Positions 1,569 to 49,962 of a DNA stretch of 64,000 nt are shown here, in pieces (the first letter of the stretch is position 1; every line of letters starts with the position of its first letter). Location of the stretch: the IMG/VR virus record IMGVR_UViG_3300029566_000004; one strand, written 5' to 3'. The notes beneath the pieces are model-generated. The model ran no database searches, was not told where the DNA came from, and saw only the letters and a list, made by a program, of their open reading frames with translations. This stretch comes from a virus. The translations under genes were made by a program, and so were the position numbers.

Positions 1569-2669
1569 ATGGCTACATTAAAATTAGATTATTCTTTAGA
1601 AACTCCAGAAGAACGTAAAGCATTAGTTGAACAAATTTTGTAGGGCAGCGACAGCGAAGACGTAGACAGAAACGGAGAATCAAACCTGTCGCCCGCTTAT
1701 CTTGAAATATTGGCCGACTACTTGGTTCTTTGTATGGAGAAACAAGAAAAAAAAGAACGTCGATTACTTACCGAAAATCGAATGGCCACAATCAATAAAC
1801 GTGAAACTTCTTTTGAAGGCCTATGCGCTTCTTTTGAAGATGGAGAAGATAGCGTTTATAATCTTATAACAAATGATAAAAATGTAATATTCCGTCCTAA
1901 AACTAAAATAACTAAAAAAGATTTAGAAGAAATTCCCGAATTGCGCGCAATACTCGATGCTATAAAATATTGGGAAGAAAAATTAAAAACAGCAACCGGA
2001 CGTGATGCTTATATAATTAAATCTACAATAATTGAATTGCGTAAAGACCAATATTTAATAAAAGCAGCTTTCCGCAAACCAGTAACATCAAATAATTTTG
2101 TGCCATCAGTATCTACCATTCCATTAAATGAAAAAATTGAAATTGATAAAGACTCAGGCTATGTAATTCCAGCCGGTGTCACTTTGATGGATCCAAAAGT
2201 CATTTCGGCAGTTCTCTGTAATTATTCTGCTTTAAAAGAATAGTGCTGGGGTTGTTTTAATAATGATTTATGGTATTTTTTAAAAGACTTTGACGAATGC
2301 GCCAATCGCGCACTTAAAGAGTATCCAATTTATGACCGTTTAGTTACACTTAAAGTCGATGGCAAATAGAATTAGGAAATTCAAAAAATACTTGAAGCTG
2401 AATTTAACATACATCATACAACTGAATATATTTCCACTCTTTGGCGTAATAAAATTCCTGGATTAATTGCATCTTAGGCTGAAGATGATTATCTTGATTG
2501 GTATTATCGAGAAGTTGAAAAAGGTCAATATAAGCGTTGCAGTCGATGTGGTCAAATTAAATTAGCTCATAATAAATATTTTTCTAAAAATAAAACTTCT
2601 CGAGATGGCTTCTACTCAATTTGCAAAAAATGTCGTAATAAAAAAACGCGCAAATCTGGACAAATTTAA
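1569..2669 (+). CDS. Hypothetical DNA-binding-type protein (366 aa): HTH-like segment plus C-terminal CxxC...CxxC zinc ribbon
   Basis: One frame runs from the ATG at 1569 to the TAA at 2667 if TAGs at 1641, 2241, 2367, 2373 and 2475 are sense. Strong RBS. The function call is motif-level only. Confidence 0.6.
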
Positions 2670-2718
2670 TTAAAGAAATACGCTTAAATTTAAAAACCTC
2701 ACAAGGGGGTGATATTCC

Positions 2719-3963
2719 ATGCAGCAACCTGAAAAAAGAAAAGTATATTACTGTGAAAAATGCGGTAAGGCCATGACAGGCGAGAATTTTTATACTTCTA
2801 ATAATCTTGAAAAATATCCTGATGATGGGAAGCTGTCACAATGTAAAAAATGTATTACAATGCATGTTGATAATTGGGATCCTAAAACATATCTTTGGAT
2901 ACTACAAGAATGCGATGTGCCATATGTGCCCGAAGAGTGGAATAAACTATTGTTAACATATGCGAAAGATCCAACTAAAGCAAAAGGATCTACTATATTG
3001 GGTCGTTATCTTTCAAAAATGAAATTAACTCAATATAGAAAATATCGTTGGCATGATACTGAATCCTTACGCGATGTTCAAAATCATCGTATTTAGGAAA
3101 CAATGGAGCGGCAAGGATACACACAATCACAAATTGATGAAACTATAAATAAAAGTACACTTGCACTTGACCCTGGTCTATTGGCGCCGCCACCTGAGAC
3201 GCAAATTCCACTTGATCTGCGCGCATAGCAACCAGAGAACGACTACTTCGCGCAACAAGCTGGTATTGATGAAGATGAATTTGCGGCGGATCTTACGGAA
3301 GAAGATAAGAAATATCTTTGCATGAAATGGGGTCGTGCCTATAAACCCAGTGAATGGGTTGCGCTTGAGCAATTGTATAACGATATGATGGAATCATATG
3401 ATATTCAATCCGCTGGTCATATTGATATTCTGAAGAAATGTTGTAAAACTTCTTTAAAAGCCGATTAGTTGCTTGATATTGGTGATGTTGAAGGCGCGCA
3501 AAAGATGGTGCGTATGTATGATATGCTGATGAAAGCAGGTAAATTTACTGCGGCGCAAAATAAAGGTGCGTCCGGTGATGCAGTTGATTCACTTGCGGAA
3601 TTGTTTGCAATGTGTGAAATGGATGGCTTTGTGCCTCGCTTCTATACCGATGGACCGCAAGATAAGGTCGACCGCACGTTACAAGATATGTAGCAATACG
3701 TTAAAACCCTTGTTACAGAAGAGCTTAATCTTGGTAATCTTATTGAAAATGCGGTTAAGCAAATTGAAATTGATAAAGCTAAAGAAGCTGAAACTGATGC
3801 TGATGCAGCCAATGATGAAGATTTGCTTGAGAATGAGATATTTGCGGAATCAGACAAAAATGGTATGACTGAAGAAGATATGAATGAATTTAATGATTGG
3901 CAAGATAAGCAAGATGAAGAAGCTCATGAGCTTCAAAAAAAACTTGAGGCAGGTGAATTATAA
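2719..3963 (+). CDS. Hypothetical protein (414 aa) with N-terminal zinc ribbon and acidic C-terminus. Sits where a small terminase subunit would be (inference).
   Basis: An AAGGGGGTGAT RBS precedes the ATG at 2719. The frame is open to the TAA at 3961 with TAGs at 3094, 3226, 3466 and 3691. The stop overlaps the terL ATG as TAATG. Confidence 0.55.
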
Positions 3964-4321
3964 TGGCACTCGCTGATTTAATGATATTATCCCAATCAAG
4001 AAAAAAAATAGGTATTTCTGAAGAACGCATAGCAGCAATTAAACCAGTAGCCCGCTAGTATTTGGCTTATTGGAGGGAATATCCCGATATGTTTGTGGAT
4101 TTTCTGCAAACAGGTAGAGATGGACAAATTCCTGAAAATGGATTGCGTTTTTACTTCTATTAGAGGGTATTCTTGCGTGCGGCTATGCGTTATAAGTATG
4201 TCTATATGACATTCCCGCGAGCATATTCTAAGTCTTTCCTTTCTGTTCTTGTTTTAATGTGTCGATGCGTTTTATATCCAAGATGTAAACTATTCGTTAC
4301 TTCTGGAGGCAAAGAGCAACT
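3963..4321 (+). CDS. terL: Terminase large subunit, exon 1
   Basis: N-terminal TerL-like sequence with the Walker-A-like PRAYSKSF and two in-frame TAGs. The frame collapses after ...SGGKEQ(L). The exact 3' end is 4319-4322. Confidence 0.75.
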
Positions 4322-5312
4322 TTACTTACTCTGCATTATTGTAAAATAGTGAAAAATAAATTTTTTGAATTGCTGGAACACCCTAAAGCCCTACACTACA
4401 ATAGTTTAGATAATTCTATAAACTATGAATGTGCTGAAAGGCGGAAAAAACGTAGGGATATGATATGCCGAAAGGCTAAGTTTTGATAATGGGCAATCAG
4501 CAGCTAAGCAAGGAGAATTAAAAATATGAGACGATTAACTTTAGAGGAATTTTAGTTAAACTTAAATAATATTCACCCAGAAGAAAAATTAAGAGCTTTA
4601 AACTATAATGGCGATAACAAAGAATGTGAAGTTTAGTGTATTACTTGTGGAACTATTTATAAGAAAAAGGCTGGATATTTTAAAGATAAACGAAAAATTA
4701 GTATTTGTAAAAAATGCTATCCTACATAGCCTAATGTTTTAAAAAAGGATTATATTCCTAGAGAAGGATATAGCTTAATCGGTAAATACACAGGTATGTA
4801 GAATAAAGTATTAATGAAGCATAATTTTTGTGGTTTTGTTTGGGAAGTAAAACCTAGTAATTTAGAAAATGGAAAAGGTTGCCCTAAGTGTAACCATAAA
4901 ATTTCTAAAGGTGAATAGAAAATAATTAAATGGTTAGAAAATAACCATATTAATTATACCCCCCAAAAGAAAATAGATATAGAGGGACATCATTTAAGTT
5001 GTGATTTTTATTTAGAAGATTATGATTTATATATAGAATATAATGGAGAATAGCATTATAATCCAATCGCTTTTTTTGGTGGAGAAGAAAAATTTAAAAA
5101 ATAGATTGAATATGATTGTTTAAAAAAAGATTTTTTAAAAGATAAATTATTAGTAATCTCATATTTAGATTTCGATAAAATCGAATCTATCCTTGAAAGT
5201 TCAACGACTATCTCGGAAGAGAGTACGCTATAAGTGTTTGATAGCGGAAGTGGAAAATTTCCTAACATAGGAAAATGATATAGTCTCAACTCTATGGAAA
5301 CATAGAGCAACG
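4322..5312 (+). mobile_element. Group I intron in terL carrying a homing-endonuclease ORF
   Basis: Stops in all frames on both sides of an internal ORF that has its own RBS. AATCAGCAGC (Q-like), ATGATATAGTCT (S-like, 5275-5286) and GAAA-tetraloop hairpins (CTCTATG-gaaa-CATAGAG) are present. Joining either 4321|5313 or 4322|5308 restores the TerL frame, so boundaries are good to about 5 nt. Confidence 0.75.
4526..5233 (+). CDS. Intron-encoded homing endonuclease candidate (235 aa): Zn-ribbon motifs plus a Vsr/DUF559-like PD-(D/E)XK core
   Basis: A GGAGAA RBS precedes the ATG at 4526. The frame is open to the TAA at 5231 with seven in-frame TAGs. The motif CDFYL...DLYIEYNGE-[TAG]-HY matches the D...IExDGxQH nuclease core. 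Confidence 0.65.
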
Positions 5313-6753
5313 AAAGTTGTATAATAAAGTAGCGTTTATTATAAAAGATAATGAGGCAGCTGGTATTATAAAAGAAAAGGTTAATGAAATATGTGCTTTA
5401 GTGCCAGCTTTTGAAAATGAACTTGATTTGCGACCAGGTAAAACTAGATAGAGTAAAGATTATTGTATATTTGTATTTAAAAATGGTTCATATTTTGATA
5501 ATATTGCGGCCAGGGAAACCAGTCGTGGTAAGCGCCGTCATGGCGGACTCATTGAAGAGTGCGTTGGTGTCGATGGTCAGATATTAAGTGAAGTAATAAT
5601 CCCTACAATGAATGTATCCCGACTGTGTATGGATGGTACAATGCATCCAGAAGAAACATTAAATAAGAGCTAGATATTCGTTACTACTGCTGGATGGAAG
5701 GGAACATTCGCATATGACAAGTTAATTCAGTTCTTGGTATGGATGTTAACTGAGCCAGATAAAGCTCTCATTATGGGCGGAACATGGCGCATTCCTGTAT
5801 TAGTTAAATTATTAGATAAAAACTTCTTATAGGACTTATAGCGAGATGGTACTTATAATGAAGCTTCATTCTCGCGTGAATATGAGTCCAAGTGGTCTGG
5901 AACAACAGAAAACGCATATTTTAATGGTGAATAGTTTGATAGAAATAGAATTTTAAAGCAGGCTGAGTACGAACATTCTGGACGCTCTTCTGTAAAAAGT
6001 TATTACATAGTTTCTGCAGATATTGGTCGTAAAGGATGTGCGTCTGTAGCTTGTGTGTTTAAAGTTATTCCATAGTCTGTTGGAAGCGCGTTTAAGTCTT
6101 TGGTTAATATTGAAACTAAAGAAGATGAGCATTTTGAAAATTAGGCAATTTGGTTAAAATCTTTATATTATAAATATAAAGCTCGTCGATTAGTTATTGA
6201 TGGCAACGGTGTTGGTTTTGGTTTAATTGATTATATGGTAAAATCTTAGATTAATCCGGATACTGGTGAAGTTTATCCAGACTTTGGTGTTTATGGTGGT
6301 ACTCAAGCTGATGCCGCCCAAGAGTTTAAGAAATATAGAACTGATCAATGCGAATAGGATGCTATCTATGTTCTTAAAGCGAATGCGCCTATTAATACTG
6401 AAATGCACGCGAATGCTTTAGTGCAGTTATCTTCTGGACGAGCTAAGTTTTTACAGGATGAACGTATTGCTAAAGCCAAATTAATGGGAACTAAAATTGG
6501 TTAGAAAATGACTCCAGAACAAAGGGCAGATTACTTAAGACCATTTACCTTAACTTCCATATTAAAGGAAGAGTTATTAAATCTTCGTGAAGAAAATGAG
6601 GGAATTAATATTATTCTTAAACAAGCTTCAAAAACGATTGGTAAAGATAAATTTTCAGCTTGGGAATATGGTTTATATTATATCCAACAAGAAGAGGAAA
6701 GAAAAAAGAAAAAAAAGAAATTCAATGCCAAAGAATGGCGTTTTTATGACTAA
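5313..6753 (+). CDS. terL: Terminase large subunit, exon 2
   Basis: Continuous frame to the TAA at 6751 with 10 in-frame TAGs. Contains TerL ATPase and nuclease-type motifs (GGLIEEC, VSADIGRKG, LVIDGNGVGFG). Exons 1 and 2 together give about 600 codons. Confidence 0.8.
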
Positions 6754-6803
6754 GTTTTTTTGGATAACTCCCAGTAATTGAATTAAATCTTTTTCATAAT
6801 TAT

Positions 6804-7128
6804 ATGAAAGAAGTAAGAAAAATAATGATTATTTATTTACATCGTAATGCAGTTAATGGGAAAGTATATATTGGTTAGACAAAAACTATATTAGCATAGC
6901 GCAATCAACATGATAGCAATGACTATAAAGGTTGTGGTTCATTCTGGAATGCAATTGAAAGATATAGTTGGGATAAGTTTTCTTATACAATTTTAGAAAA
7001 TGCACAGAAATACTACACTTTGTCAAACAACTATTTCTAAAAATTGTAAAAATAAAGGCACTATTTCTGTGCATAAAGCTAATAAAAATTATACTTGGAT
7101 GTATTTAACAGATTATTTAAACTGTTAA
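6804..7128 (+). pseudogene. Degenerate, frameshifted GIY-YIG homing endonuclease
   Basis: Frame A (6804-7040) encodes the GIY-YIG N-terminal motif ...IYLHRNAVNGKVYIG-[TAG]-T... and stops early. The +1 frame (7000-7128) encodes a typical C-terminal DNA-binding tail (TTISKNC...YTWMYLTDY). The middle region is missing. Confidence 0.55.
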
Positions 7129-7142
7129 GAAAGGAGGACCAA

Positions 7143-7499
7143 ATGAGAGCTTCAAGAGGAGAAATTAAAATTGAAGAAATCTTACTTGCGGCCGGCCTTC
7201 ATTTTGAAGAGGAATATATCTTCCCAGACTTGAAGAGTCCTCGAGGAGTACCTTTACGTTTTGATTTTGTGATATTTGATGATGATGGCGTAATTGATTT
7301 TATTATTGAATATCAAGGAAAACAACATTATGAACCTTCTGCCAAATTTGGCGGTAAAAAAGGATTTTATCAATAGTAGTATAATGATACTCAAAAACGT
7401 CGTTTTTGTGCATTACATGGATTTAAGTTAATAGAAATTCCATATACAGACGAAGACCTAATTGACTATGATTATATTATGAAAAGAGCTGGATATTAA
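7143..7499 (+). CDS. Small free-standing Vsr/DUF559-like nuclease (118 aa)
   Basis: An AAGGAGGA RBS precedes the ATG at 7143. The motif RFDFVIF...DFIIEYQGKQHY is present. A tandem TAG-TAG lies at 7374-7379, and the frame is then open to the TAA at 7497. Confidence 0.6.
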
Positions 7500-7514
7500 A
7501 AGGGGTGAAATAAG

Positions 7515-9134
7515 TTGGAATTCAGTAAACGACAATAGGAAATCCACGATAAAGGTTTTAATATGTTTGCAAATGGCGGAACTGATTACTCAAAAATTAA
7601 AGTTGGTGTAAAAGCTTTAGAAGATGCAAAAATTAATTTAGGCGCATATACTAAATCTACTGTTCCTCGCAACTATACGAATAAAGGATTAGTTATACAA
7701 GCCATGGCTAATCGTGACTATGAGACTTTGCGTGAAATCTCTAATCATTTTTATCGTATAAGTGGCATATATCGTCGTATATGTGATTACGTCGCCACAA
7801 TGTACCGTTATGATTGGTATGTTTTTCTAGAAGCAATAGGAATGGATGAAAAAGATTTAGATGAATCAAAAGCAATTAAAGAATTTGTTAAACTTTTAAA
7901 TTTTTTAGACAATTCACATATTAAGAAAGTTTGTAGTGATATTGCACTTTAGGTTATTAAAAATGGTTCTTTTTATGGGTATTGCGTTTGTACACCTAAA
8001 CGGTTTTATATTTAGGAATTGCCTTGTAAATATTGCCGCACTCGCTATTTTATTGGAGAAAGCCCTACTGTAGAATTTAACATGCGCTTTTTCGATGATA
8101 TGTTTCCTGATACGACATATCGTATGAAAATATTAAAACTTTTCCCTCAAGATTTCCAACTGGGCTATCGTTTATATAAACAAAATAAATTAAAGCCAGA
8201 TTATCCCGGCGATAATTCTGGTGCTTGGTATCTATTAGATCCAGATTGTGCTTTTAAATTTTGTTTTCACAATGACGATTTCCCACTATTTATTAATACA
8301 ATACCTGCGATTTTAGATTTAGATGCTGCTTAGGATTTAGATCGTCGCAAACAATTACAACAACTTTTAAAAATAATTGTATAGAAACTTCCACTGGATA
8401 AGAATAGTGATTTGGTATTTGATGTTGAAGAAGCCAGAGATATTCACAATAATGCAGTAGAGATGCTTTCTCGCGCAATTGGCGTTGATGTATTAACAAC
8501 TTTTGCTGATATTGAATCAATTGCGCTTAATGATAAAAATACCACTGCAACGCAAGATGACCTAGAAAAAGTGGAACGTACAGTTTATAATTCTTTTGGT
8601 ATTTCTAAAAATATGTTTAATACTGATGGTAATCTTTCATTAGAAAAGTCAATTCTTTCTGATGAGGCAATGATTCGTGATTTGCTTATTCAATTTGAAT
8701 ATTTTTTCGATGCTATTACTCAAAAAACAAAAACTACTGCGAAGAAATACAAATTTAAATTTTGTATGCTTGAAACAACTCAATATAATCATAAAGAAAT
8801 GTCGAAGTTGTATAAAGAGCATGTTCAATTAGGCTTTAATAAGATTTTACCTTAGATTGCGCTTGGGCATTCATAGAGCTCTATTCTTAATAATATTTTC
8901 TTTGAAAATAAAGTTTTACATTTGCAAGAGCTTATGATTCCACCTCTTATGTCTTCGACCATGAGTAGTCAAGATATTTTGGGCACACGTGGACAAAATA
9001 CTTAGAAGAAAACTCAATCTTCTACAGAAGCGCAAGAATAGTAGATTACTACTTAGCAATCGGCTGGTCGTCCTGAAAAGCCAGACGATTAGAAAAGCGC
9101 AAAAACTATTGCTAATAAAGAATCAATGAGTTAA
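7515..9134 (+). CDS. Portal protein (539 aa)
   Basis: An AAGGGGTGA RBS precedes a TTG start at 7515 (an alternative ATG lies at 7563). One frame runs to the TAA at 9132 with about 12 TAGs. Size and position after terL fit a portal. Confidence 0.7.
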
Positions 9135-9145
9135 GGAGGCTTATT

Positions 9146-10699
9146 ATGAATATTAGCTTAAAATTAAATACTCCATGTGAGTTAATTAATGTAACTCCTT
9201 ATAATCCTTTGATTTCTAAATGTTAGATAAAAGTTTGTTATGTGGGAGAAAAGCCTAACCGCAATAAAAGTATAATCACAAAAGAAACTGCGAGGGAGAT
9301 TGCTAACAGTCTTCCCGGCAGTCCCATTGTTGGTTATTTTAATGAATCAACATAGGATTTTGAGGAACATAATCGTTCTATTGAAATTAAGGGCGGTAAG
9401 ATGCATTTTGAAGACACTACAAGGCCTTATGGCTTTGTTGATTTAAATGCAAAATGTTGGTTTCAATAGTATCAAGATGGAGATGAAGTACATGAATATT
9501 TATGTACTGAAGGCTGGATTTGGACTGGTCAATATCCAGAAGCAAAACGCATTATTGATTAGGGAAATAATCAGTCTATGGAGCTTGATAAGGATACAAT
9601 TGATGCCTACTGGTCAAAAAATGATAATGGAGAACCTCAATTTTTCATTATAAATGAGGCAATAATTTCAAAGTTATGCATTTTAGGTGCAGACTTTGAA
9701 CCTTGCTTTGAAGGCGCGCAAATAACCAATGTAGAATTTTCATTAGATGATGAATTTAAAAACACATTATTCTCAATGATGAATGACTTACAAAAATTAT
9801 TAAATGAAGGAGGAACGCCTGTGACTAAATATTCAGTAACAGTTGGAGATTCCGTCTGGACGGCTTTATATTCTTATATTGATACCACTTATCCCAATAT
9901 TGAGACAAACGTATCTGACTATAGTATTAAAGGCGTTTATGAAGAGGATTCACAGAAGTTTACCATTCTTCAGAACAACAAAGATGGAAAGTATTATCGT
10001 TTAAATTTTTCGCTTGATGAGAATAATGAATTCTCTGCAAGCCCTGACCTTATTGAAGTAACTGATTATGCTGCTAATGAAGAATCTCAGTTTTCTGAAG
10101 ATAGCATTAATGAGTTTGTAAATGAGTTTAAGAAAAAGAGGGACGATAAAGAGTCCAAGAACGAAGAAAAGTCTGTTGAAGGCGAAGGCGACACTGCTTC
10201 TGCCGAGAAGAAAGACGATGAAAAATCTGAATCTAATAATTCAGAAGAAAAGTCTGAAGAAGAAAAAGAAGACCCTAATAAAAAGGGCAAAAAAGTTAAA
10301 TATGATTTAAATGAAATCCAAGAATATGTGGATTTAAAAAACGAGTATGATGCATTAAAGACTAAGTATGCTGAGATGGAAGTTAAATTTGCAATTCTTC
10401 AAAAATTTAAGGAAGATGCAGATCGCGAGGCAAAACGTGAAATGATTAATAGTTTCTATATGCTTTCTGATAACGATAAGGCAGATTGCCTTGCTAATAT
10501 TGATACTTATTCTCTTGATGATATCGAAGCGAAATTATCTATAATTTGTGTTCGCAACAAGGTTAGCTTCGCCCGTGAGGATGAAGAGCCCGCAGCTGAT
10601 GATGTAATCACATATAATTTAAATGATACTTCAGATGAGGACTCAGTCCCTGCCTGGATTAAAGCTCTCCGCTCTGTTGCAAAAGAAATCAATAATTAA
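9146..10699 (+). CDS. Prohead protease/scaffold-like protein (517 aa)
   Basis: A TAAGGAGG RBS precedes the ATG at 9146. There are four TAGs before 9578. The C-terminal half is acidic, lysine-rich and coiled-coil like a scaffold. Lies between portal and capsid genes. Confidence 0.55.
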
Positions 10700-10715
10700 T
10701 AGGAGGAAATATTAC

Positions 10716-11372
10716 ATGGCAAAGACAAATTTAAGCGGCGCTAAGTATGTTCAGCATGGCTATGGTCAGGTTGAGCCTAATCATCTTTCTGCGCAGAGAA
10801 CTGCTCAGATTTATGCTCAGCTTCCTGCCGCTGCAAATATTGATGTTTTACAGAATGGCCAGTTTGTAAAGTACGACTATAAAGAAGGTGTCGTAGACTT
10901 TACCGGTAAGGGTGAATGGATGCTGGTCTTTAATGAAATTAAGCTGTATCGTGACCACGAGCAGTATGATGATTGGGCAATGAAGAAGGAAGATTACGTT
11001 GCTCGCGTATACTCTCCTGTTGATGGCGAAGGTCAGACATATGCTAATTCTCGTAACTACGAGGGAGATGTAAATGCTTATGAGCATGACATTACTAGCA
11101 CAACTAATCCTTTCGTTATTGAGCAGTTCAAGAAGCCCAAGATGATGCCCGAAGGAACAAAGATGGTTCCTCGTGTATTCAAGACTAACGTTGGCGATAT
11201 TTTCACTACTAACCTCGTTGATGAGGAAGAGCTCGCTCTTGGTGATGAGTTATCTCCCAATGCTACTGGTATTTTATGTAAGTCTGGTGACGAGTCAATG
11301 ATTTGGCAGGTTGTAAAGGTTTACACTCTTGCTGACCGTCAGAGGGCTGTTAAGATTATGCGTATTGCGTAA
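10716..11372 (+). CDS. Abundant head protein candidate (218 aa; decoration or auxiliary capsid protein)
   Basis: An AGGAGGAAAT RBS precedes the ATG at 10716. No TAG. Codon usage is shifted toward GCT/CTT/GGT/CGT, as in the capsid gene. Confidence 0.55.
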   Translation: MAKTNLSGAKYVQHGYGQVEPNHLSAQRTAQIYAQLPAAANIDVLQNGQFVKYDYKEGVVDFTGKGEWMLVFNEIKLYRDHEQYDDWAMKKEDYVARVYSPVDGEGQTYANSRNYEGDVNAYEHDITSTTNPFVIEQFKKPKMMPEGTKMVPRVFKTNVGDIFTTNLVDEEELALGDELSPNATGILCKSGDESMIWQVVKVYTLADRQRAVKIMRIA

Positions 11373-11389
11373 GAAAGGAGAGAAAGATT

Positions 11390-12511: not shown

Positions 12512-12522
12512 TTCAGCTGAAC

Positions 12523-12912
12523 ATGTCCAAGCTAGTTACCGCGCCTAATGATGTAAATAAAGAATTATCATAGGCGAACCAGGATATGATTAGCGTTATC
12601 AAGGGCAGCGATACCGAATGGGTCGTTGTTGGTAGCTTAGAAGAATTAAAGAGTTTTGATTCTACAAATCCTGCGCAAGGTAATGGTAAGTGGGTTGGTA
12701 TTGATATCGACACTGGCTTAGATACTATTGTTGGCGCAACTTGGAATGGTTATTCATTAACTTAGGATGATGTTAATGAAGCCGCTTCCGTTGGTTTAGG
12801 TGCTGGCCATATTATCTTCTGGGCTAAGGCTGAAGCTTTACCAAGAACTATTACTATTGGCGCTCCTGAGAAGGAAAATATTAGTGTAACAGTTTCATTT
12901 AGAGACCGCTAA
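12523..12912 (+). CDS. Hypothetical head-associated protein (129 aa)
   Basis: The ATG at 12523 is 12 nt after the capsid stop. Two in-frame TAGs, TAA at 12910, followed by a strong terminator. Confidence 0.5.
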
Positions 12913-12933
12913 TGATTGATTAATTAATTTACT

Positions 12934-12971
12934 GGGGAGTTAGGATTAACTCCTAACTCCCCCTTATTTTT
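12934..12971 (+). terminator. Rho-independent terminator after the head genes
   Basis: GGGGAGTTAGGA-ttaac-TCCTAACTCCCC (12-bp stem) followed by a T-rich tail. Confidence 0.8.
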
Positions 12972-40022: not shown

Positions 40023-40039
40023 AAAGGAGGACTTTTATT

Positions 40040-43000
40040 ATGTTATATGATGCAAATTTTTTACAAAAACTAGATACACATCACGAACATACATATTACG
40101 TCCGAATACAAGCATTAACCTTTGATGAACGTCCACTAGAGCAGTTAGAAGGACGTATTACTTCTGGATCAATTAATCTTGATGGCAAGAGCGCAATTCG
40201 GCGCTCTTGCTCATTAAGCTTTATTGCTGAAGCAACTGAGATTAATGATTATTATTGGACATTTAAATAGAAATTTAAAGTTGAAATTGGTTTAGAAAAT
40301 AAAGTTGATGATTCATACCCATCTCGAATTTATTTTAATATGGGAACTTTTTTTATTACTAGTTTCAGTTCAACTTTTACTACTAATTCTGCCTCAATTA
40401 GTATCCAAGGAAAAGATAAAATGTGTTTATTGAATGGAGAATTGGGCGGCATTATTAATGCTGAAACAGATTTTGGTACTTATGACTATACTGATGCAAA
40501 TGGTGTTACAACGAATTATAAATTAACTATTCAAGAAATTGTTACAGATTTAATTTATAGTTATGCTCAAGAGCCATTATCTAATATCATTATATAGGAT
40601 TTAGATGATGTTGGTTTAGAATAGTTAGATTATAAGAACGACGATCCAATGTTTTTAATTCGCTCTTTTACAAGTGAGCGTTATGTGCTACCTTTGTTTA
40701 GTAGCGCTGATGTGACAGTTTATTGCTGTAAGGAAATCGGAAAAGACCAATATAAGTTTTCAGTATAGAAATTGAATAATGATAAAGTAATTATTTATGA
40801 TAGCCTAACTCGACCACTATTAGATAATAATTACATTGCTACACGATTTACATTTGAAGAAATGGATGAAACATAGACATATACGGCTGAATAGTTAAAT
40901 CAAATGCAATTATATTGCGCAGCTAAAATTACTTATGGTGAAGCAGTTGGCTACCGGGTTTGTCCATTGGTCTATGCGGGAGATTTAATTGCTAAAGCTG
41001 GCGATACAATTACTTCTGTGTTAGATAAAATTATAAAAATGTTAGGTGAATTTGAATATTTTTATGATGTTGATGGACGTTTTGTATTACGTCATAAAAA
41101 ATCATTTATCAATACTGTTTGGTTGCCAGAAATGGTAACAATTAGTTCGGATGAGGGAAGAGATCGTTATTGGCTAGATTATCAATATGCAACACCATAC
41201 ATATATGAATTTAAAGATACTAAATTAATTACTAATGTACAAAATTCTCCATAGTTAGCTTCAATTAAAAATGATTATACGGTTTGGGGGGAGCGCGTTT
41301 CTGCGGCCGGTGGTAAAGTACCTATTCATAGTAGATATGCTATTGACACTAAGCCAATTATATATGTCAGTGTTGCTCCTGATGCCGAACCAAATGTCTG
41401 GACTACTTTATCAGAAGCTGAATTTAAACACTATCAACTTAATATGCCATGGCTTAAGTAGCGTTTATTGTCGCGCATCTAGCTACATGCGTCATTAGAT
41501 TGGCGTGAATTAATTTATCAAATGGCTAAGGAATATCGTCAATACAATCATAACCATAACAATTTAGAATTTGAAGACTATCAAATTACGCTGGCAAAAC
41601 GCAATGAACCTTATTATCCAAATGGTCATACTGGCTATGAGCAATATTATATTGATTTAGAAGGTTTTTGGCGTCAATTATATTGGCCTTATGATAATAC
41701 TGATGAAGATGTTTTAAATGAAATGAGCGTTTATAATAAAGTAGTAGATTATAGTGAAATAAATAGTTCTAATTTATCTTAGTATTATATTAATGGTGTA
41801 TACCGTCCTAATAGTGCTGGATTAAAAATCTATTCTGAATAGGGAACAACTGAATTAGAATTAAAAACTACAGAGCATCCATGTAAGTTATATGGCACAA
41901 CTGATAAATGGGTTATTTTAGATAGTACTCATTGGTATTATGTTGATGAAAATGGTAAAGGATTTAATATTCCTACTGAATTAGGAATCAGTGAAATTCC
42001 GCAAATTGGACAATTTACTACTAAATTAATGCATGGTTGGTATACGTATGATACTATTCGTAATTTTTTAGAAAAAAGTCCAAGTGCAGATACATTTGTA
42101 AAATTTATTTATACTACGGCATATGACATTTCAAGTTAGTTGTGGTATAAATATTCTGATATTTCGCAATCTTTTATACCTTATTTGGACCAATATGACT
42201 ATTGTCCTATTTTAGCCACAGAAAATTATCCTATTGAAGGAATGACTATTAAAGAATATTATGAAAGAACATTTGTGGATGGAGAAGCGATATATAATGC
42301 AATTTCTGAAAGCTATAAAGGTTCAAAATATATGTTATATATTTTAAATGATGTAGATACAAATATAAAAAATATTCTACAGTAGAAAGATATGTGGTTG
42401 TCATTAATATCATTAATTCTTGAACGCAATCAATTACTATATTCCTCTTGGAGTAATTGGCAGAAATGGCTCAATGACAATGATTTTATTGAATTATTAA
42501 CATCAATTACCAATAATGTTTTATAGCAAGACTCAATAGAGCGTCGTTGGTGGCAAAATGAAATAATGACTACAGCTGATGCTATAATAGCTTTGCGTAT
42601 TGCTTTAGAGATGGAAGCATCTTCTCCTGAGTTATTATTGAAATATGATTGGAATCATGATGGATAGATTACTCTTACAGATGCTTTATTGATTATGCGT
42701 TCAGTATATAATCTTGATATGATTAACATTTCTTTGCCCAGTAGTATTTCATTAATAGATTTAAAAAACTTTATACAAAATGTAACAAATAATTATGGTG
42801 AAATAGTAGATAATTTAAGTGATGAGTTAATTGCGCAATATGATTTAGATGATGATGGATAGATTAATGAAGTTGAAATTTTTCTATGGACTTATATTTA
42901 TAATTCTTTGGTGTTAGCTGATAACTCAGAATTATCAAAATTAAACCCATTGGCACATTTTATTGTATCAAACATAATAGCTTGTCCTAGTGCAATTTAT

Positions 43001-44083
43001 GATTATTTTGTAAATTCTACTAGCACTAAGGATTAGCCCTTAATTTATGATGATTTAATTGGTTTAACTGTACAAATTAACAACACAGAGCTAATATCGG
43101 AATTATTTCAATTATTAAATTTTAATTCACTTTATCAATTGTAGTGGCTTTTAAATATGTACTATGATTTTATATATGATAATTTCTCTGTTTTGAAAGA
43201 TGCGCATATGTTATCATATCAATTATTTATAAATCAATTAGCTGCAAAAACTGATTTATACTATAATGCCAATAGTAATGAAAGTAAAAAAATGTAGTTT
43301 AATAAATTTATTACTTTATTTAATTCACATTACATTTATGATAATTTAAATTATTATAATTTACAGCATATAAAAATACATCCAATTTTATCAACATTTT
43401 ATCATTTAAATGAGCAGCCTATTGAACAATTAGCGATTATTCCATATGATATTCATGGTAATCCCACTTATTTAACACGTCACTATGAGAAAATAAATTA
43501 TTATACTCGTGATTTATTATATTATGGGGCGAGTGATGGTATACGAGCATATTGGAATAAAGCAGTTTATGAAGCTCCTTATACATTAAATTTCTGGTTT
43601 GATTTTTTAGATACAGATGGTAGTATTTCGGCATATGCTACATCCGAAATAGGAGACAGGCCAATAGTGGTTAATGATACTAATTTAAAATCCATTTTTT
43701 ATAGAGAAATTCCAAAAATTTTAATTTATACTTTTGATCAATTCCAAGATGAAAAAATAGAATTAAAATCTGGTTATGGCTATATTTTATTGCCAGCTGG
43801 TTATGAACAATATTTTTCTATTTCTTCACGAGGATTAAGTATTAAAAATAAAATTGATGATTTACTTTATCAACATACCTATTGCAATTAGACAATAAAT
43901 TTAACTTGTATACCTATTTATTATTTAGATGTAAATAGTCGTATTTATATTGGTGATAAAAGATTAGGGATTGATGATGATTTCGCCATTTAGAGCATTA
44001 GTTATTCATTAAATTATAATGGCACGATGTCTTTAAGTGCAGCAAAAATTTAGCCTAATTCAATATTTGAGAGAGAGGAGTAA
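40040..44083 (+). CDS. Large tail-tip/baseplate protein (1347 codons) with dockerin/EF-hand-like calcium loops
   Basis: An AAAAGGAGGA RBS precedes the ATG at 40040. One frame runs to the TAA at 44081 with only TAG interruptions. The N-terminus resembles tail-protein families with a ...GSINLDGKSAIRRSCSL... motif. Confidence 0.6.
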
Positions 44084-44088
44084 TTAGC

Positions 44089-44511
44089 ATGGCAAAATTA
44101 ATTGAACAATGGTTGCCTCCTATGGATAAATTAGGGAATTTAAATTTAATAGATGAATAGGGTAACCCAAGCAATACTTGGGTTATCCCTTTACAAAAAC
44201 GGCAAGTTGCATCGATTGGTATTCAAGGTCCAGAAGGATTAATGTTTAGTATTAATGGCGCGCCAACTAATAAAACTAATTATTTGACTATTGGTGCTTA
44301 TGGTGTTTATAATTTAACACGTCATGATATTCAAGATTTAACCATTCGATCTATTACTATTTATTTTACAGAAACAAATAGTAAATGGTTAACAAAAAAT
44401 CCTTGGCCAATTATTGTTGATGTTGTTTATAGCGAAGAAGAATATAAATTCATCGAAGCTACTACGCCTGATACAAATAATTCAGATCTAATTAATGATT
44501 CCAGTAAATAA
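44089..44511 (+). CDS. Hypothetical tail-associated protein (140 aa)
   Basis: The ATG at 44089 follows GAGAGAGGAG. One TAG, TAA at 44509. Confidence 0.5.
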
Positions 44512-44531
44512 GAGAGAAAGGAGATTATTAA

Positions 44532-47500
44532 ATGAGTAATATTATTACAACGGATAGTTTATATAATAATCAATTTACATAGAATTCTACATATAAAGAA
44601 TTACTAATCTTTAGAAGCAGATGGGATGCAGATAACCAACCCCGTAGTGGCACGGGCGCACTTGTTAATAATGAAGAAAAATTATTTTGGATAAAAACAA
44701 TTAAAGATTACCCATATGTAGAAATCAGTCATGGCAAACCAAATATGGAATGGGCTGATGGTACTGCTACGCCACTTGTTAATTCTAATAACATTTGTGT
44801 ATCATCCTCTGTGGCTAATAATCCGGTTGCTACAAACGCAACTGCATTGGAATGGGGATCGCAAATCCTTATTGCTAAGCCAATTGTTGCAGATACAGGT
44901 CATGTGATTGGTACAAAAAGTACAGGCATTAATATTCCAAAAGTTAATGCAATTGAAAAATTAGAAATGCGCAGTCATACTGCTAATAATTAGATAGAGT
45001 ATACTTTTGCGCATAAAACTATTAACAATCCGCCTAATTCCTCACCAATTGCAAATGCAACGGTTATTCAAGAAAGTCAAAATAATACTAGACCTAAATC
45101 TAAAATAAAATTTGGGAAAACTTATGATATATCACAAGATCAATTTGATCAATGGGGTCATTATCTATCTCAATCTACTTAGACAATAGATATGCCAAAC
45201 ATTAATGCAACGTCTCCAATAAGTGTTACTTTAAACAATGGTGACGCTTAGATATCTCATAGTCTGGCAACAATTGTTGAAACTACGCCACAATTTTCAA
45301 CTTATACTAATTCTACGAACACGAGGGTCAAACTGCCAGAATTGACATTAGAAAATAATTATAATTTAGAAGGCCCTCATACAGATGCATATGGACATGC
45401 TAATGCATAGGCGCAATTTGGTTTTGCTTTACGACATCACTTACCTTTAACCAGGAAGGCTACAGCGCATACTTATTTAAGTGATACTACTGGTAAAACT
45501 ACAGCAATAGCTAGACCAAAGCGTGACGGAGACGCAAGCAGAACTGCTCCAGAAAACCCAATTTCATCGCCTATTGATAAAATTAAAATGGCAGCAGTTA
45601 TTTATGCAGGAGATAATGATGGCAATCGTCAGTCTTGCGTATATTTAAATGATTCTACAGATACAATAATCAATATTTATTTTTTAAATAAATCATTAGC
45701 TACTAATGCTGGATTGCGCAATGCGTATTTAACTTTTACATTTCCAACAAATATTACAGTTACAGAAACTATTATGAATCAATCTTACATAGCTTCTACT
45801 GATACGCAATATCATTATTAGTTACTTAATAATCCAGATATAAATAATCCAATTAATATTTTAAAATTATCAGTGCGTTCAACAGGGATGATAAATAAGT
45901 CAGCGATTAATATATAGGTTACACCAGCTATTATTGAAGCGATTGATATCCCATGCACAACGGCTACTAATCTAGATGATAATGACCCTGATTCGAATAC
46001 CATTATAACTTGGCAAGAAGATGCAATTTTACAAACGCCAGTAATGCAATTTAATGAACAAGGTCATATTAATGATATTTTAACCAAAGGCATTGCTTTC
46101 CCACATTATACTACTCCTTATGGACGAGAAACTACATTTAGTAAGGCAATTGACTATTTAAATCGTTATTTATCACCTAATCCTCGTAATAGTGTAATTG
46201 ATTAGTATTTAACTGGCGCGTCGCCAATAATTGAAATTCCTACAAGCGATTCTCCTGGGTCTGGTGATTAGTAGATTTATAGTTCATATATTGAAGTAGT
46301 TTTATAGGCTTGTTTATTAAATAACGGAAATGGTTTAGTAACTGGCAAGTCTCTATCTTTCGCTGGCTTACAATTTTCTTTATATCAATATGATGAAACT
46401 GCAAATAAATGGCAGCCTTATGTTTGGCGCAAATCTATTTCGACAAATCAAGCTGAATTAGAGATTGGTAATAATAACAATACTTCTAATACTGGATACA
46501 TTTATTTAACTGATACTAAACAACGAATTGCTTTTGTTTTATCATAGCCTTATATAACAATAAATAATGAAATTTAGAAATATATATTAACAGGTAATAA
46601 TGTTGAATTACTATGGGATACATCAACTTATGGTTATGTTATTAATTTACCTGCGGTTAAAGATATTTCTCAAATTAATCCATATTAGTTAATTCAAATT
46701 TCATTAACTAAAGACGAAAGCTATTCTCCAAGCCCATCGCCAGATGTGCATAATGTTGAATTTAGAATTTGTGCAGCAATGAGAACTGGACTTAATACCC
46801 CACAAGGATGTAAGTTTTCTTTATATAAATCTATACAAGGAACAACTTTATACGATCGAATTGGTGCTCCTTATCAAATTAATGATATTTATATTGATGA
46901 AGCAAATTTATTAACAGATGTTAATCATTATGAATTTTATACTTCATAGATATAGACTATTGATTCCAATAGTCTTAATACTATATATGTAGGTTTGGAT
47001 ACTACAACAAATCAAACAATAAGTTTTAATTATGTAACTTGTCAATTGGCAGAAGAAATAGCTATAGGGAATAATGTTATTGCGTTTAAAAAGTTTACTC
47101 GTGGTATTAAGCCATCTATGGATCAATATGTGCTATTTGTCGTGGTAGACGAACAAGGTTATCCGCCAGTCAGACCAATTAATCCTACAGCCAGTGAATC
47201 TGAACAATCTTCTAAAAATGCAGGAATGGAAAATCGTATATCAGCTTTAGAGCAAGCCACATTACAATTAACTAATATTAGTGATTTAAAAAGTGTAAAC
47301 AATTTAATTTCACGTGTTGCTAATTTAGAAGATGAAATTAATCCTATTGAATATGACGCTGCAGTTGGGCAAATGATAGCAAAAAATCGTTTTGAGAAAA
47401 TTGATGCATAGACCAAATATTTAAATAAAAATAATTATCCAATAGATTTAGCTGATGCGTTTTCAAAATTATTAATGTGTTATACTGGATTAGTGAAAGA

Positions 47501-47645
47501 ATTAGCTGGTAAATTCTATAGCGATAATTAGAATCAATTTATAGCGACATTTGCATTGCCTCTTCTTAAAGAGAATGATAATTAGTCATATTTACCTAGC
47601 GATGATATACCTTCGTTAGATTCTAATACAGGAGGCGGTAAATAA
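44532..47645 (+). CDS. Tail fibre / receptor-binding protein candidate (1037 codons)
   Basis: A GAGAGAAAGGAG motif precedes the ATG at 44532. One frame runs to the TAA at 47643, and every interruption is TAG. Confidence 0.55.
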
Positions 47646-48133
47646 TGAATCTGAATTCAATTTTAGGCAATTTTGTTAAATTTGTACGTGGCACTCCAAC
47701 TGCATATAATAATCTTCAACAAAAAAATCCTGATACATTGTATTTTATTACTGAAGACAATGCTTCTTCGGGTAAATTATATTTGGGAAATAAATTAATA
47801 GGTGGCTCTATCACAGGAGCCACCTCTCTTTCTGAATTAGTTGATGTCTTCTTAGATAATAATTTATCGGTTAATCATATTTTAGTCTATGAAGGTAATC
47901 ATTGGGTTAATAAAGATATTCGAGATATTTTTGAGATATCTATTGGTACAATGCAAGGCGCAACTAAAGATACTGATGGTAAAATAGGTTTAGTACCTGC
48001 GCCGCAGGCCAATCAATAGGACACTTATCTTCGAGGAAATGGAACATGGGATAATCCTATAGCTACATACTCTGAACAAATTAATACTATGATTCAAGAA
48101 AAATTACAATGGTCTACCATTGAAGAAAATTAA
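47645..48133 (+). CDS. Tail fibre-like protein (162 aa)
   Basis: TAATG overlap with the upstream gene. The motif GLVPAP...-[TAG]-DTYLRGNGTWDN resembles the fibre motif G-x-VP-x-P...FLRGDGTW. Confidence 0.55.
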
Positions 48134-48159
48134 AATAAATAAGAAAGGAATTTTTATTT

Positions 48160-49692
48160 ATGGCGACAAAATTAAATACTGCTGTAACGTTTGTACATGG
48201 TACACAAACTACATTAAATACTAAAGGTATTACCAGTGGTCAAATTTATTTTACTACTGATACTAATCGTTTGTATTGGGCAGATCCCAGCGATAGTGGA
48301 ACATTAAAATGGATTGATGGCGTGAGACGCACCAATGCATTGCCTAGCGCTCCGGGTTCATATAATCCAAGTGGTTCAATTTTAGTTGTTACACAATCTG
48401 ATGATAATGGTGCATATGATGGAGTCTATATTGCCGATGATACTAGTTGGATAAAATTAGATGCAACTACATTAAATAGTAGTATTACTACCGATAATAA
48501 TACCGCGCATATTTCTCTAACTCCTCAAGGAAAATATACTAAGGGGACAATGTTTGATATTAAAGGAGACGGCAATGTAACAATTAGCTCTGATTCAAGC
48601 ACAATTACTATTTCTGTTCCGACTCCAACTAATACGCATTTAGTTGCTAATGACCATGCTTTATCCGCGACTATAACTAATGGCGATTTATCCATTAATA
48701 TGTCTGCCTCTGATAGCGAAAATAATACAGTCAATGGTAAGATAATTATTAATGGCGGTTCAAATATTCATATTGACCAGAATGAGCTTGGCAATATCGA
48801 ACTTTCTGCAACTAATACTTAGCTTGCAGCTACCACCACCGCAGTTAATTTAACACCAGCATCTTCAACGAATGGTGTTAAAATTGTTACAACTATTTCT
48901 GATACTGCTTCTAATGCGGCTACTGGTAATTTTGAGCTTGTTGGCGCTGATGGTATTGCGATTTCCCATAATAATAATGTTATTACTTTAACAGGTGGTG
49001 CGGCAGGAGTTATTGGAAATATTAAAGATTATGTAAATTAGGCATTAGCTGATGCTCTTGGTGACTTAGACGCTATGAAGTTTAAAGGCGCAATTAGCGT
49101 AGCTGATTTTAATAATTTAAATCCTAGTACATTTGAAAGTGGTTGGGCTTATAAATTTATTACTTCTGGCACAGTAACAGGCGCTTCTGCGGATGTTGAT
49201 ATTGGTGATATGGTTATCATGTCACAAGATGCAAGGAATAATTGGATTTATAATATTATTCCTTCTGGTGATGACACTGATGTTTATTATACACCTTCTA
49301 ATGATGCTACAAATCATCAGGTTAAATTCACTGATAATACTGGCACTTTAACAGTAGCACATAAAATTATTGGTGCTAATGGTATTACTACAACTGCTTC
49401 AGTAAATGGCAAAACTTTAACTGAGACAATTAAACATGTAACAATTACACCAACCAGTACAAAAGCTACAGTTGCTAATAATTTCGTATCTACAATGACT
49501 TTTGATGACTACGGTCATCCGAGTACAGTTACATATGCACCTGCTCATGTTGCTGTAACACCTACTGCGAGCTCTTCAACTGTTAATACATTTATTAATG
49601 GTTTAACATTTGATACTTATGGTCATGTTACCGCATACACAAACGCTACTGTTGATATCGATACAAATATGTATTGGCATACACTTAGCTAA
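48160..49692 (+). CDS. Tail fibre protein (510 aa, Thr/Asn/Gly-rich)
   Basis: The ATG at 48160 is followed by TAGs at 48820 and 49039 and a TAA at 49690. The N-terminus parallels the gene at 47645 (FVHGT...LYF.TD...LY). Confidence 0.55.
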
Positions 49693-49716
49693 TTTTAAAG
49701 AAGGGAGTTGATAATA

Positions 49717-49962
49717 GTGCCAACTTCTATTATTCCAACAACGATACCTATTAAATTTATTACAACTTCAGCAGCTAATTTAAATGATATTAATATAGTG
49801 GCTGGCCAAATTATTTATACTACTGAAGGCAATATTTATTATGATCAATCAAATTTATCGCGTGTACGCATGACTATTGAACCTACTTTTACAGTTGAAA
49901 ATAATTCAACAACATTAATAATTGGAATGCCTACACATACTCCTCCAGTAGTTACCAAATAA
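49717..49962 (+). CDS. Small fibre-associated protein (about 81 aa)
   Basis: An AAGGGAG RBS lies 9 nt before the GTG at 49717 (the track start TTG at 49708 abuts the RBS). TAA at 49960. Confidence 0.45.
   Translation: MPTSIIPTTIPIKFITTSAANLNDINIVAGQIIYTTEGNIYYDQSNLSRVRMTIEPTFTVENNSTTLIIGMPTHTPPVVTK

Follow-up and report, generated by a model that had tools for sequence, protein, structure and literature searches.

What does the codon TAG mean in the phage of IMG/VR virus record IMGVR_UViG_3300029566_000004, and what reads it? The DNA analysed here, a stretch of 64,000 nucleotides (nt) that we call the window at its full length, comes from an SPbeta-like siphovirus of about 150 kb from the human gut and spans its late module, for virion and lysis, together with a portion of the replication module. 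Many of its late genes are interrupted by in-frame TAG. An earlier note, made from the letters alone, took TAG to be a sense codon, most likely for glutamine (Gln). We propose, with a probability of roughly 0.87, that UAG is decoded as Gln (code 15) by a phage-encoded tRNA with the anticodon CUA, and that the asymmetry in TAG between early and late genes would act as a gate on the late genes.

Reading TAG as a sense codon restores the late genes

Gene calls were compared over the plus strand from 1569 to 49692. Coding density was 0.50 with translation table 11, 0.97 with table 15 and 0.53 with table 4; the respective calls comprised 67 open reading frames (ORFs) with a mean length of 120 amino acids (aa), 31 with a mean of 503 aa and 71 with a mean of 120 aa, a gain in density and mean length for table 15 only. 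The summed length of plus-strand ORFs of at least 100 aa rises from 8,506 to 17,291 aa once TAG is sense, and freeing TGA adds almost nothing. All of the breaks are TAG and the reading frames are maintained across 15,000 codons, just as the earlier note had claimed. The 44 ORFs used hold 259 in-frame TAG and stop at TAA (35) or TGA (9); TAA and TGA remain stops while TAG as sense restores full-length ORFs, the pattern of code 15. Four standard-code relatives identified by tblastn (MT836163, Enterococcus phage EF1, Lactococcus phage PMBT69 and Brevibacillus phage Sundance) showed no gain under table 15 above the 1.13-1.17-fold rise of any relaxed stop set.

The clearest case is the ORF at 21310-31428, which runs for 3372 codons with 69 in-frame TAG (about 70 by the note's manual count), no in-frame TAA or TGA and a terminal TAA; at the TAA plus TGA trinucleotide frequency of the window, a frame staying open this long would be expected with a probability of about 3e-92. 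Counts likewise bear out the same pattern in 31545-35435 (21 TAG), 35487-40022 (19), 40040-44083 (22) and 44532-47645 (19), as well as in the second piece of the large terminase gene (terL) and the portal gene, with 11 apiece. Moreover, the ENA contig GUYA17-1_SAMEA3708778_METAG-scaffold_76 (150,284 bp) is 100% identical to the window over two compared stretches, and its stored gene calls already run through TAG; they include the 3372-aa tape-measure protein and a 317-aa YorF with internal TAG.

Single positions to which the note had pointed were also found as described, namely the tandem TAG-TAG pairs at 7374-7379 and 14525-14530, the TAG in 'YIEYNGE-X-HY' within 4526-5233, that in 'AVN-X-T' of the holin (50203-50205) and those in 'EDI-X-L-X-QD' of the RuvC-like protein. 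The TAG at 6876-6878 does lie in a GIY-YIG motif ('..KVYIG-X-TK', in a remnant), but makes a weak argument for Gln, as related GIY-YIG genes of the same phage and of a related phage show K, Y, I or Q at the 'YIG-X-T' position. The extent of the recoding needed revision. Recoding of a whole module at 1569-49962 holds as to recoding; the module ends at 49692, however, and its capsid and tube genes are nearly free of TAG. Nor is recoding confined to the plus-strand module, since the minus-strand lysis and RuvC genes (50011-51307) are recoded too. In three genes a TAG stands no more than two codons before the real stop (14472-14474, 20565-20567 and 53146-53148, in the contexts '..TL-X-stop', '..RL-X-K-stop' and '..DE-X-K-stop'), with about one case expected by chance; a 'backup stop' role was considered for these three genes, but they stand at about chance level and we make no claim for it.

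The interrupted genes are maintained and TAG aligns with glutamine

Sixteen related loci allowed 182 of the 259 TAG sites of the window to be compared between strains. Of the 1812 codons that differ by a single nucleotide downstream of the first TAG in each late gene, 1088 differ synonymously (60% against 22% expected, p ~ 1e-268), and TAG itself was kept at 146 of the 182 sites. Judged by these substitutions, the sequence past the first TAGs is under purifying selection and the genes are not pseudogenes. It is very improbable, therefore, that we are looking at decayed pseudogenes of a defective element, a reading which purifying selection past the TAGs excludes, or at readthrough by a host suppressor or in a code-15 host. 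The lack of a tRNA in the window itself would favour such readings. Against them stand the intact frames with TAG as their only break, the conservation of TAG, the tRNA(CUA) of the phage's own (see below), and the helicase and the YonG fragment, each found as an identical protein on at least 22 contigs from several sources and samples, mostly of 50-200 kb. In a code-15 host, moreover, the avoidance of TAG in early genes would be needless.

Where strains differ at a TAG site, Gln was the commonest residue (49/144; CAG 24, CAA 25), with Ala (13) and Thr (11) next; Ser came to 9, Tyr to 8, Leu to 5 and Trp to 1. Other codons one step from TAG were scarcer (TAT 8, GAG 4, TCG 4, AAG 1, TGG 1, TTG 0). 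CAA is two substitutions away from TAG and yet as common as CAG, which fits synonymy of TAG with Gln. Log-likelihoods from a substitution table built on the same strain alignments were -374 for Gln, -438 for Glu, -469 for Tyr, -494 for Ser and -551 for Leu. In the four standard-code relatives, Gln again led opposite TAG (55/231), followed by Lys (34), Glu (24), Leu (14) and Asp (13), and this profile is that seen opposite the CAA and CAG codons of the window. Summed BLOSUM62 scores at TAG sites were 118 bits for Gln, 66 for Glu, 54 for Lys and -11 for Ser. Opposite the window's TAGs, the gut phage phAss-1 likewise has TAG in 7 cases and Gln in 20.

Both the strain substitutions and, independently, the standard-code alignments favour Gln, as the earlier note had surmised, and support TAG as a sense codon for which Gln is by far the best-supported meaning on these comparisons. 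Ser, Tyr, Leu, Trp and pyrrolysine (Pyl), which were also considered, find no support in the strain likelihoods or the BLOSUM62 sums. Elsewhere, metaproteomics confirmed code 15 in crAss-like phages (PMC9523058), and, of 29 tRNA(CUA) taken from a phage-derived library and tested in a cell-free system of E. coli, 28 inserted Gln (PMC12636597).

A phage-encoded tRNA(CUA)

An 89-nt tRNA(CUA) is encoded by three strains that are about 98% identical to the window except in a mosaic segment at 19.4-28.2 kb, in the tape-measure region (10350-10438 in L051 and L052, 3153-3241 in L060; L numbers denote loci). It belongs to a tRNA array on the early-gene strand, of 17-20 genes in two strains and 11 in the truncated third, and in each of the three the array holds one tRNA(CUA) and one tRNA-Gln(UUG). 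Some 45 kb separate the right end of the window from the array, which puts the suppressor at about 109 kb in window coordinates. Beyond the window come first the remaining replication genes (RecJ, primase, DnaB, YorH, YorF, ligase and gyrase), next an RNA-ligase/kinase/phosphatase set and a TAG-free sigma-70 gene, then a small second block of TAG-bearing, fibre-like genes on the window's plus strand, and then the tRNA array.

Against the Rfam tRNA model the suppressor scores 58.5 bits. The identity rules of tRNA-Gln, derived from E. coli and GatCAB work, are a weak 1-72 pair, G2-C71, G3-C70, G73 and U35. The suppressor has U1-A72, G2-C71, G3-C70, G73 and U35, all of these elements, together with an encoded CCA. 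Its acceptor stem, UGGGGUG/CACCCCA with G73, is like that of the phage's tRNA-Gln(UUG), UGAGGUG/CACCUCA with G73, apart from G3/A3. With such an acceptor end, the tRNA would presumably be charged through the host Gln pathway. The supE type of E. coli is an amber-suppressor derivative of tRNA-Gln, and the present tRNA resembles it in bearing a CUA anticodon together with a weak 1-72 pair, G2-C71, G3-C70 and G73. It departs from tRNA-Gln, a class I tRNA with a variable loop of 4-5 nt, in having, between its anticodon and T arms, a hairpin of about 17 extra nt. To our knowledge, neither supE nor any known tRNA-Gln has anything like a ~17-nt extra arm with an anticodon-like YU-CUG-AR loop.

Several observations weigh against decoding as Gln by this tRNA. 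The tRNA search found none in the window or within its 10-kb flanks; the tRNA(CUA) that the earlier note had suggested seeking is thus absent from the window, present in three strains about 98% identical to it, and seen on the contigs of those near-identical strains, not on the window's own. An extra arm of ~17 nt in the variable region is a feature of class II tRNAs (Ser, Leu, Tyr), and the first 18 nt of the suppressor are nearly identical to those of the phage tRNA-Trp save at position 1. In Sundance, the most distant relative, the substitution matrix scores Glu and Gln equally, and opposite TAG both Lys and Glu occur more often than Gln. Finally, release factor and aminoacyl-tRNA synthetase families had no matches among the 10 larger out-of-window proteins scanned, about 8 kb of the genome being unread.

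Some of these points would fit TAG being sense for another residue, be it Ser, Leu or Tyr, Trp, Glu (through a non-discriminating glutamyl-tRNA synthetase, GluRS, with no amidation) or Pyl. The variable region is long, the suppressor matches the phage tRNA-Trp at 60 of 74 positions, Glu and Lys are the next likeliest residues in the distant alignments, and 13 of 18 long tRNA(CUA) from bacterial and archaeal genomes have a D-arm of class II (Ser/Leu/Tyr) type. We nevertheless hold any of these residues to be improbable. Log-likelihoods of other residues fall 65-180 units short of that for Gln, in line with the counts and BLOSUM62 sums given above, and TAG interchanges as often with CAA, two substitutions away, as with CAG. 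Three features speak against derivation from a class II tRNA: a D-arm of class I-like form (GUGUAAUGGCAACAC), an extra arm in which 2-5 bp enclose a 7-nt loop, and the lack of enrichment of Ser, Leu or Tyr at TAG sites. The first pair is U1-A72 as in tRNA-Gln, unlike the A1-U72 of the phage tRNA-Trp. As for Pyl, the tRNA-Pyl fold is compact, its variable loop very short, its D-loop small and its anticodon stem 6 bp long; the suppressor has a normal 5-bp stem in a standard anticodon arm, a 7-nt D-loop and a long extra arm, the ARAGORN label 'tRNA-Pyl' reflects the anticodon only, and no Pyl-related protein occurs among the 10 out-of-window proteins scanned.

The surroundings of the array merit record. 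On the replication side outside the window, L018 (1241-4793) clusters an RNA-ligase-like gene, two metallophosphatases and an AAA_33 kinase, which together with the 17-20 tRNA genes suggests a set for RNA or tRNA repair. About 5 kb from the array, L034 (13770-18556) carries a DUF2828/DUF7788 protein, an adenylosuccinate-synthetase-like protein (possibly PurZ-like), a 305-aa protein with no Pfam match and a DnaJ-domain protein. Within the array of L052, positions 2612-2719 match Y RNA-like (YrlA) at 44.9 bits, under the gathering score of 69. Positions 8425-8498 of L052 give a weak partial match to transfer-messenger RNA (tmRNA; 26.5 bits); the distant relative L033 has a tmRNA gene (6636-6924, tag AKNNYRPVLMAA) within its tRNA array. 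Among the ARAGORN calls are also tRNAs whose anticodons are 4 nt long (taaa, agaa), in a strain (L060, 4390-4463) and a relative (L074, 13267-13342); these could be frameshift or ochre-type suppressors, or artefacts.

An extra arm with a loop like the anticodon loop of tRNA-Gln

The extra hairpin of the suppressor, GC-UUCUGAG-GC, has a 7-nt loop laid out like an anticodon loop with CUG, a Gln anticodon. Long suppressors of relatives that were found without pattern bias (L061 and L081) have the same loop layout on other stems (ACC-CUCUGAA-GGU and UCA-UUCUGCG-UGA). We scanned IMG/VR with the pattern CTCTAAA N{8,12} TCTG N{14,16} GTTCGA and obtained at least 120 matches; in the loci examined, ARAGORN called at least 118 tRNA(CUA), at least 74 of them unique and at least 61 of those 85-93 nt long. 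In all, at least 62 distinct suppressors with the extra arm occur on IMG/VR contigs and in metagenome-assembled genomes (MAGs) labelled Erysipelotrichaceae, Bacillota or 'Mollicutes'; the type is found in L034 and L037 as well as in L051, L052 and L060, and the 62 lie in L104-L221, L234, L272, L281, L292 and L326. Some phages hold a long and a short suppressor together.

Among the matches listed, the two closing pairs of the arm were paired in 62 of the 62 hairpins analysed, with four pair types each, so that by comparison of sequences the stems covary. Loop position 37, left free by the pattern, was A in 58 of these 62, and position 32, equally free in the pattern, was C or U in all 62, where the filter had excluded three long sequences with G there. 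The loop consensus is Y32-U33-CUG-A37-R38, with UUG in place of CUG in one case, and the commonest loop among these matches, CUCUGAA, is the anticodon loop of a phage tRNA-Gln(CUG) at locus L055. A second scan, of GTDB genomes, left the loop sequence free and gave 18 long tRNA(CUA), of which 13 had D-arms of class II type and ordinary extra arms and five had a class I body. All five of the latter carry the Gln-like loop (four CUG, one UUG), and the MAG labels of four are Erysipelotrichaceae (two), Bacillota and 'Mollicutes'. Loop-blind sampling thus gave a Gln-like loop in every class I-bodied long suppressor, 3/3 types among relatives and 5/5 in GTDB. As a control, a metagenome search for UGA suppressors with a Trp-like loop returned, among the matches listed, 119 of 120 that were not tRNAs and one tRNA-Sec; the form of the pattern alone therefore does not pull out tRNAs. 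No Trp analogue turned up among these matches, though as a test for a parallel class this is a weak one. By blastn the 89-nt suppressor matched GenBank phages in T-arm fragments only. We found no description of the arm in the literature searched, coverage of which was incomplete, so that a prior description is possible.

We tentatively suggest, as a possibility rather than a probability, that the suppressor belongs to a widespread and apparently undescribed class of tRNA(CUA), built on a class I body like that of tRNA-Gln, whose extra arm functionally mimics the anticodon arm of tRNA-Gln. The arm might restore the Gln identity lost with G36->A36, for glutaminyl-tRNA synthetase (GlnRS) or for a non-discriminating GluRS with GatCAB; alternatively, it could be a decoy for factors that target the anticodon of tRNA-Gln, and it is possibly a relic of a duplicated anticodon arm. 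Irrespective of its role, the alignments give Gln as the predicted outcome. Long tRNAs (84-93 nt) for Cys, Glu, Lys and Thr, isotypes that are normally short-looped, occur in the related phages L055, L059, L061, L063, L067, L069 and L070; their extra arms have ordinary small loops that are not anticodon-like.

TAG is concentrated in late genes

Genes of the plus strand contain 16.0 TAG per 1000 codons (245/15,324) and the holin-to-RuvC block 22 (8/363), against 1.7 (6/3,613) in replication genes; plus-strand and replication genes differ with an odds ratio of 9.8 (p = 6e-16). TAG makes up about 1.6% of late-gene codons, one third of the late Gln codons. The presumably abundant virion proteins (10716-11372, 11390-12511 and 18213-19103) have 0-1 TAG each and encode Gln by 26 CAG and 3 CAA. 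In the remaining late genes Gln is written as CAA or TAG, with little CAG; CAG totals 82, including the 26 in the three genes for abundant proteins. A few TAG occur in homing-endonuclease genes and in some early genes. Avoidance of TAG in abundant virion proteins suggests that suppression is slower, less complete or costlier than normal decoding.

Under the proposed mechanism, UAG would be read as Gln, with TAA and TGA the sole stops, by the phage-encoded tRNA(CUA). The early and replication genes, near TAG-free, would be translatable by unmodified host ribosomes, and the suppressor would be made from the early strand. Late and lysis genes would then be completed only after the suppressor had built up, and recoding would thus act as a late-gene gate, a timing that we infer from the placement of genes and codons. 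The same TAG pattern and a model of early genes that are readable and late genes that are recoded were put forward by Borges et al., in whose other recoded phage clades lysis genes are recoded too (10.1101/2021.08.26.457843).

It is also possible, although we think it doubtful, that TAG means Gln and the asymmetry is not regulatory at all. TAG would then build up, chiefly by change from CAG, in genes whose weak or late expression tolerates it, and be purged from genes that are highly expressed or needed before the tRNA is present. The use of CAG by the capsid and tube genes fits this, in that avoidance follows expression level as well as timing; so do the TAG in a few early genes and many homing-endonuclease genes, and the finding of no dedicated switch genes (release factor or synthetase) among the scanned proteins. 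What favours the gate instead is the tenfold difference in density, with no TAG in the 1295 codons of DNA polymerase III alpha against 69 in the tape-measure gene, the recoding of lysis genes on the opposite strand, and the position of the tRNA array on the early-gene strand.

Gene content of the window

The features of the window are as follows. Assignments in the head module rest on Pfam matches to the ENA code-15 calls, phrog_3313, phrog_4088 and codon counts; those in the block at 50011-51307 rest on phrog_13712 (holin), phrog_827 and phrog_159.

1-1568, no strand: non-coding leader; no long ORF in any frame
1569-2669, plus: first late gene, sigma-factor-like (phrog_5767 'sigma factor', E = 3.5e-50; 5 TAG), with a zinc-ribbon/HNH-like tail at the C-terminus of its product
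2719-3963, plus: YonG-like gene (phrog_3314; Pfam YonG_N on called fragment; 4 TAG)
3963-4352, plus: large terminase, first piece (phrog_15503 profile positions 23-127); homology stops near 4320 and the remaining ORF continues into the insertion
4526-5233, plus: HNH/homing endonuclease inside the terL insertion (phrog_559, phrog_9084; 7 TAG in 235 codons)
5275-6753, plus: large terminase, second piece (phrog_15503 positions 126-213, then phrog_24618 and phrog_2; 11 TAG)
about 6820-7040, plus: remnant of a GIY-YIG N-domain, from translation (TAG 6876-6878)
7143-7499, plus: separate nuclease-domain ORF (phrog_559, phrog_9084; tandem TAG-TAG 7374-7379)
7563-9134, plus: portal (phrog_2739, E = 3.7e-75; tblastn to phage portals; 11 TAG)
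9146-10699, plus: YonD-like head protein (Pfam YonD_N; 4 TAG)
10716-11372, plus: head module gene (0 TAG)
11390-12511, plus: putative major capsid protein, YonB-like (Pfam YonB; 1 TAG)
12523-12912 and 12992-13546, plus: head module genes (2 and 0 TAG)
within 13562-17753, plus: head-tail joining genes, YomW- and YomV-like (Pfam YomW, YomV_2nd; 1-8 TAG each)
16944-17753, plus: LAGLIDADG homing endonuclease (Pfam LAGLIDADG_3), between the YomV-like and tube genes
18213-19103, plus: tail tube protein (Pfam YomU_Tube; 0 TAG; CAG 6, CAA 1)
19431-20570, plus: late protein without assigned function (no PHROG match; 14 TAG in 379 codons, the top density among structural genes)
21310-31428, plus: tape-measure protein, 3372 aa (Pfam PhageMin_Tail on the ENA call; tblastn to EF1, Sundance and PMBT69; 69 TAG)
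31545-49692, plus: distal tail, baseplate and fibre genes (weak PHROG tail matches; homology to phAss-1 tail genes), namely 31545-35435 (21 TAG), 35487-40022 (19), 40040-44083 (22), 44089-44511 (1), 44532-47645 (19), 47645-48133 (1) and 48160-49692 (2)
50011-50406, minus: holin (2 TAG)
50422-50823, minus: lysis or late gene (2 TAG)
51008-51307, minus: RuvC-like resolvase fragment (4 TAG)
51478-63293, minus: early and replication genes (Pfam on called genes; 6 TAG in 3613 codons), among them dUTPase (phrog_135), DUF5662, a guanylate-kinase-like protein and a RecD-like helicase
57275-57736, 55733-56308 and 53606-54808, minus: ribonucleotide reductase, in three pieces
56374-57066 and 54947-55570, minus: LAGLIDADG and GIY-YIG endonuclease genes splitting the reductase
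58374-62261, minus: DNA polymerase III alpha (0 TAG in 1295 codons)

Two direct repeats of ~300 nt lie in the leader (5-306 and 651-950; identity about 80-91%), along with three repeats of 35 nt (1347-1512) and numerous inverted repeats rich in AT. The leader had no Rfam matches and may serve as an origin, for packaging or as a region of late promoters. The terL gene (3963-6753) is interrupted at about 4320/5350 by an insertion of ~1 kb with the HNH gene, which is probably an intron. Neither this nor the presumed introns of the reductase matched Rfam, with the window searched at the gathering threshold and at E <= 0.01. Phage EF1 has an HNH gene annotated 'Phage intron' shortly upstream of its portal gene. 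In strains L001 and L002 the reductase is without the GIY-YIG insertion, and DNA polymerase III alpha, intact in the window, is interrupted by an HNH/NUMOD gene, so that the set of insertions varies from strain to strain. The homing-endonuclease genes at 6820-7499, between terL and portal, and at 16944-17753 all carry TAG. Lastly, strains otherwise about 98% identical differ over a mosaic segment at 19400-28200, where the gene at 19431-20570 and two thirds of the tape-measure gene, on its N-terminal side, fall to 70-83% identity or cannot be aligned; we read this segment as exchanged.

Relatives and lineage

Precomputed Pfam matches include the SPbeta families YonG_N, YonD_N, YonB, YomU_Tube, YomW, YomV_2nd, YorF, Phage_SPbeta_YorH and DNA_pol3_alpha. 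By tblastn, the portal is 52% identical to that of MT836163, a 12-kb human faecal scaffold, 39% to phAss-1 ('Caudoviricetes code 15 clade') and 29% to the Enterococcus phages EF1, H1 and VRE9, and further relatives are phages of Lactococcus, Brevibacillus, Bacillus, Alicyclobacillus and Mammaliicoccus. These matches make the phage an SPbeta-like siphovirus with a Bacillota-type host, in agreement with the siphovirus of a Gram-positive-type host that the earlier note had proposed. A crAss-like origin, which the giant proteins had suggested, is excluded by the SPbeta-type families and the relatives among Bacillota phages. At the nucleotide level, megablast of 15 kb of the window (5000-20000) against GenBank phages and blastn against the 41-kb phAss-1 locus (L004) found no matches.

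The closest described system is the phAss-1 group (Babkin et al. 2023; PMC10607447), gut phages of 133-138 kb with a predicted Eubacteriales host and TAG in 37-41 ORFs, among them terL, portal, a tape-measure gene of about 3150 aa, tail fibre and holin. They carry two or three tRNA-Sup-CTA and no synthetase, read TAG as Gln, and sit within a wider group containing Enterococcus phage EF1 (PMC10607447). The window phage shares the human gut, a genome of 130-150 kb, a giant tape-measure protein (3149-3209 aa in the phAss-1 group, 3372 aa here), TAG for Gln in terL, portal, tape-measure, tail and holin genes, its own tRNA(CUA) in a large tRNA set with no synthetase found, homologous structural genes and the 7 common TAG positions. 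The relation is only distant, however: there is no nucleotide-level match, the phAss-1 suppressor examined is 77 nt long and lacks the extra arm, and the window phage additionally has many homing-endonuclease insertions. It falls outside the proposed genus Phassvirus (phAss-1, BK046881, BK025033), defined by nucleotide identity of about 80% or more and synteny, and belongs by gene content and order to the wider phAss-1/EF1/PMBT10 group, with 18 window genes matching phAss-1 and 18 matching EF1 by tblastn.

With SPbeta and the large Bacillota siphoviruses (EF1/VRE9, Sundance, PMBT69 and Bacillus phages PBC2 and Nate) it has in common Pfam families, the Pol III alpha module and the order sigma-like, YonG, terL, portal, head, tube, giant tape-measure and tail, whereas EF1, Sundance and PMBT69 use the standard code and portal identity is just 21-30% in amino acids. 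The clades of Borges et al. are alike in having early genes compatible with the standard code, recoded structural and lysis genes, a phage-encoded suppressor and hosts, Firmicutes included, predicted to use the standard code; the window phage differs in belonging to another, SPbeta-like lineage and in that no release factor or synthetase genes were seen.

Significance

The earlier note, which named crAss-like and Lak phages as gut lineages known for amber-to-Gln recoding, judged its occurrence in an apparent siphovirus of a Gram-positive-type host worth characterising. TAG for Gln in large gut siphoviruses of this lineage was, however, described in 2023 (PMC10607447), and recoded phages with predicted Firmicutes hosts were reported in 2021-22 (10.1101/2021.08.26.457843). 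The recoding found here is thus already known in kind, and the sole unusual part is the extra arm of the suppressor. The window phage is a well-resolved SPbeta-like addition to the recoded phages of Gram-positive hosts, one in which TAG has largely replaced CAG in late genes other than those for the most abundant virion proteins. This phage and many of its gut relatives need gene calls with table 15, as half of the late module is otherwise lost to fragments. The suppressor tRNA is possibly of more weight than the recoding itself: if its extra arm does serve as an identity element or a decoy, it would represent a new route to amino-acid identity for a reader of a stop codon, of interest to tRNA biology and to the engineering of genetic codes.

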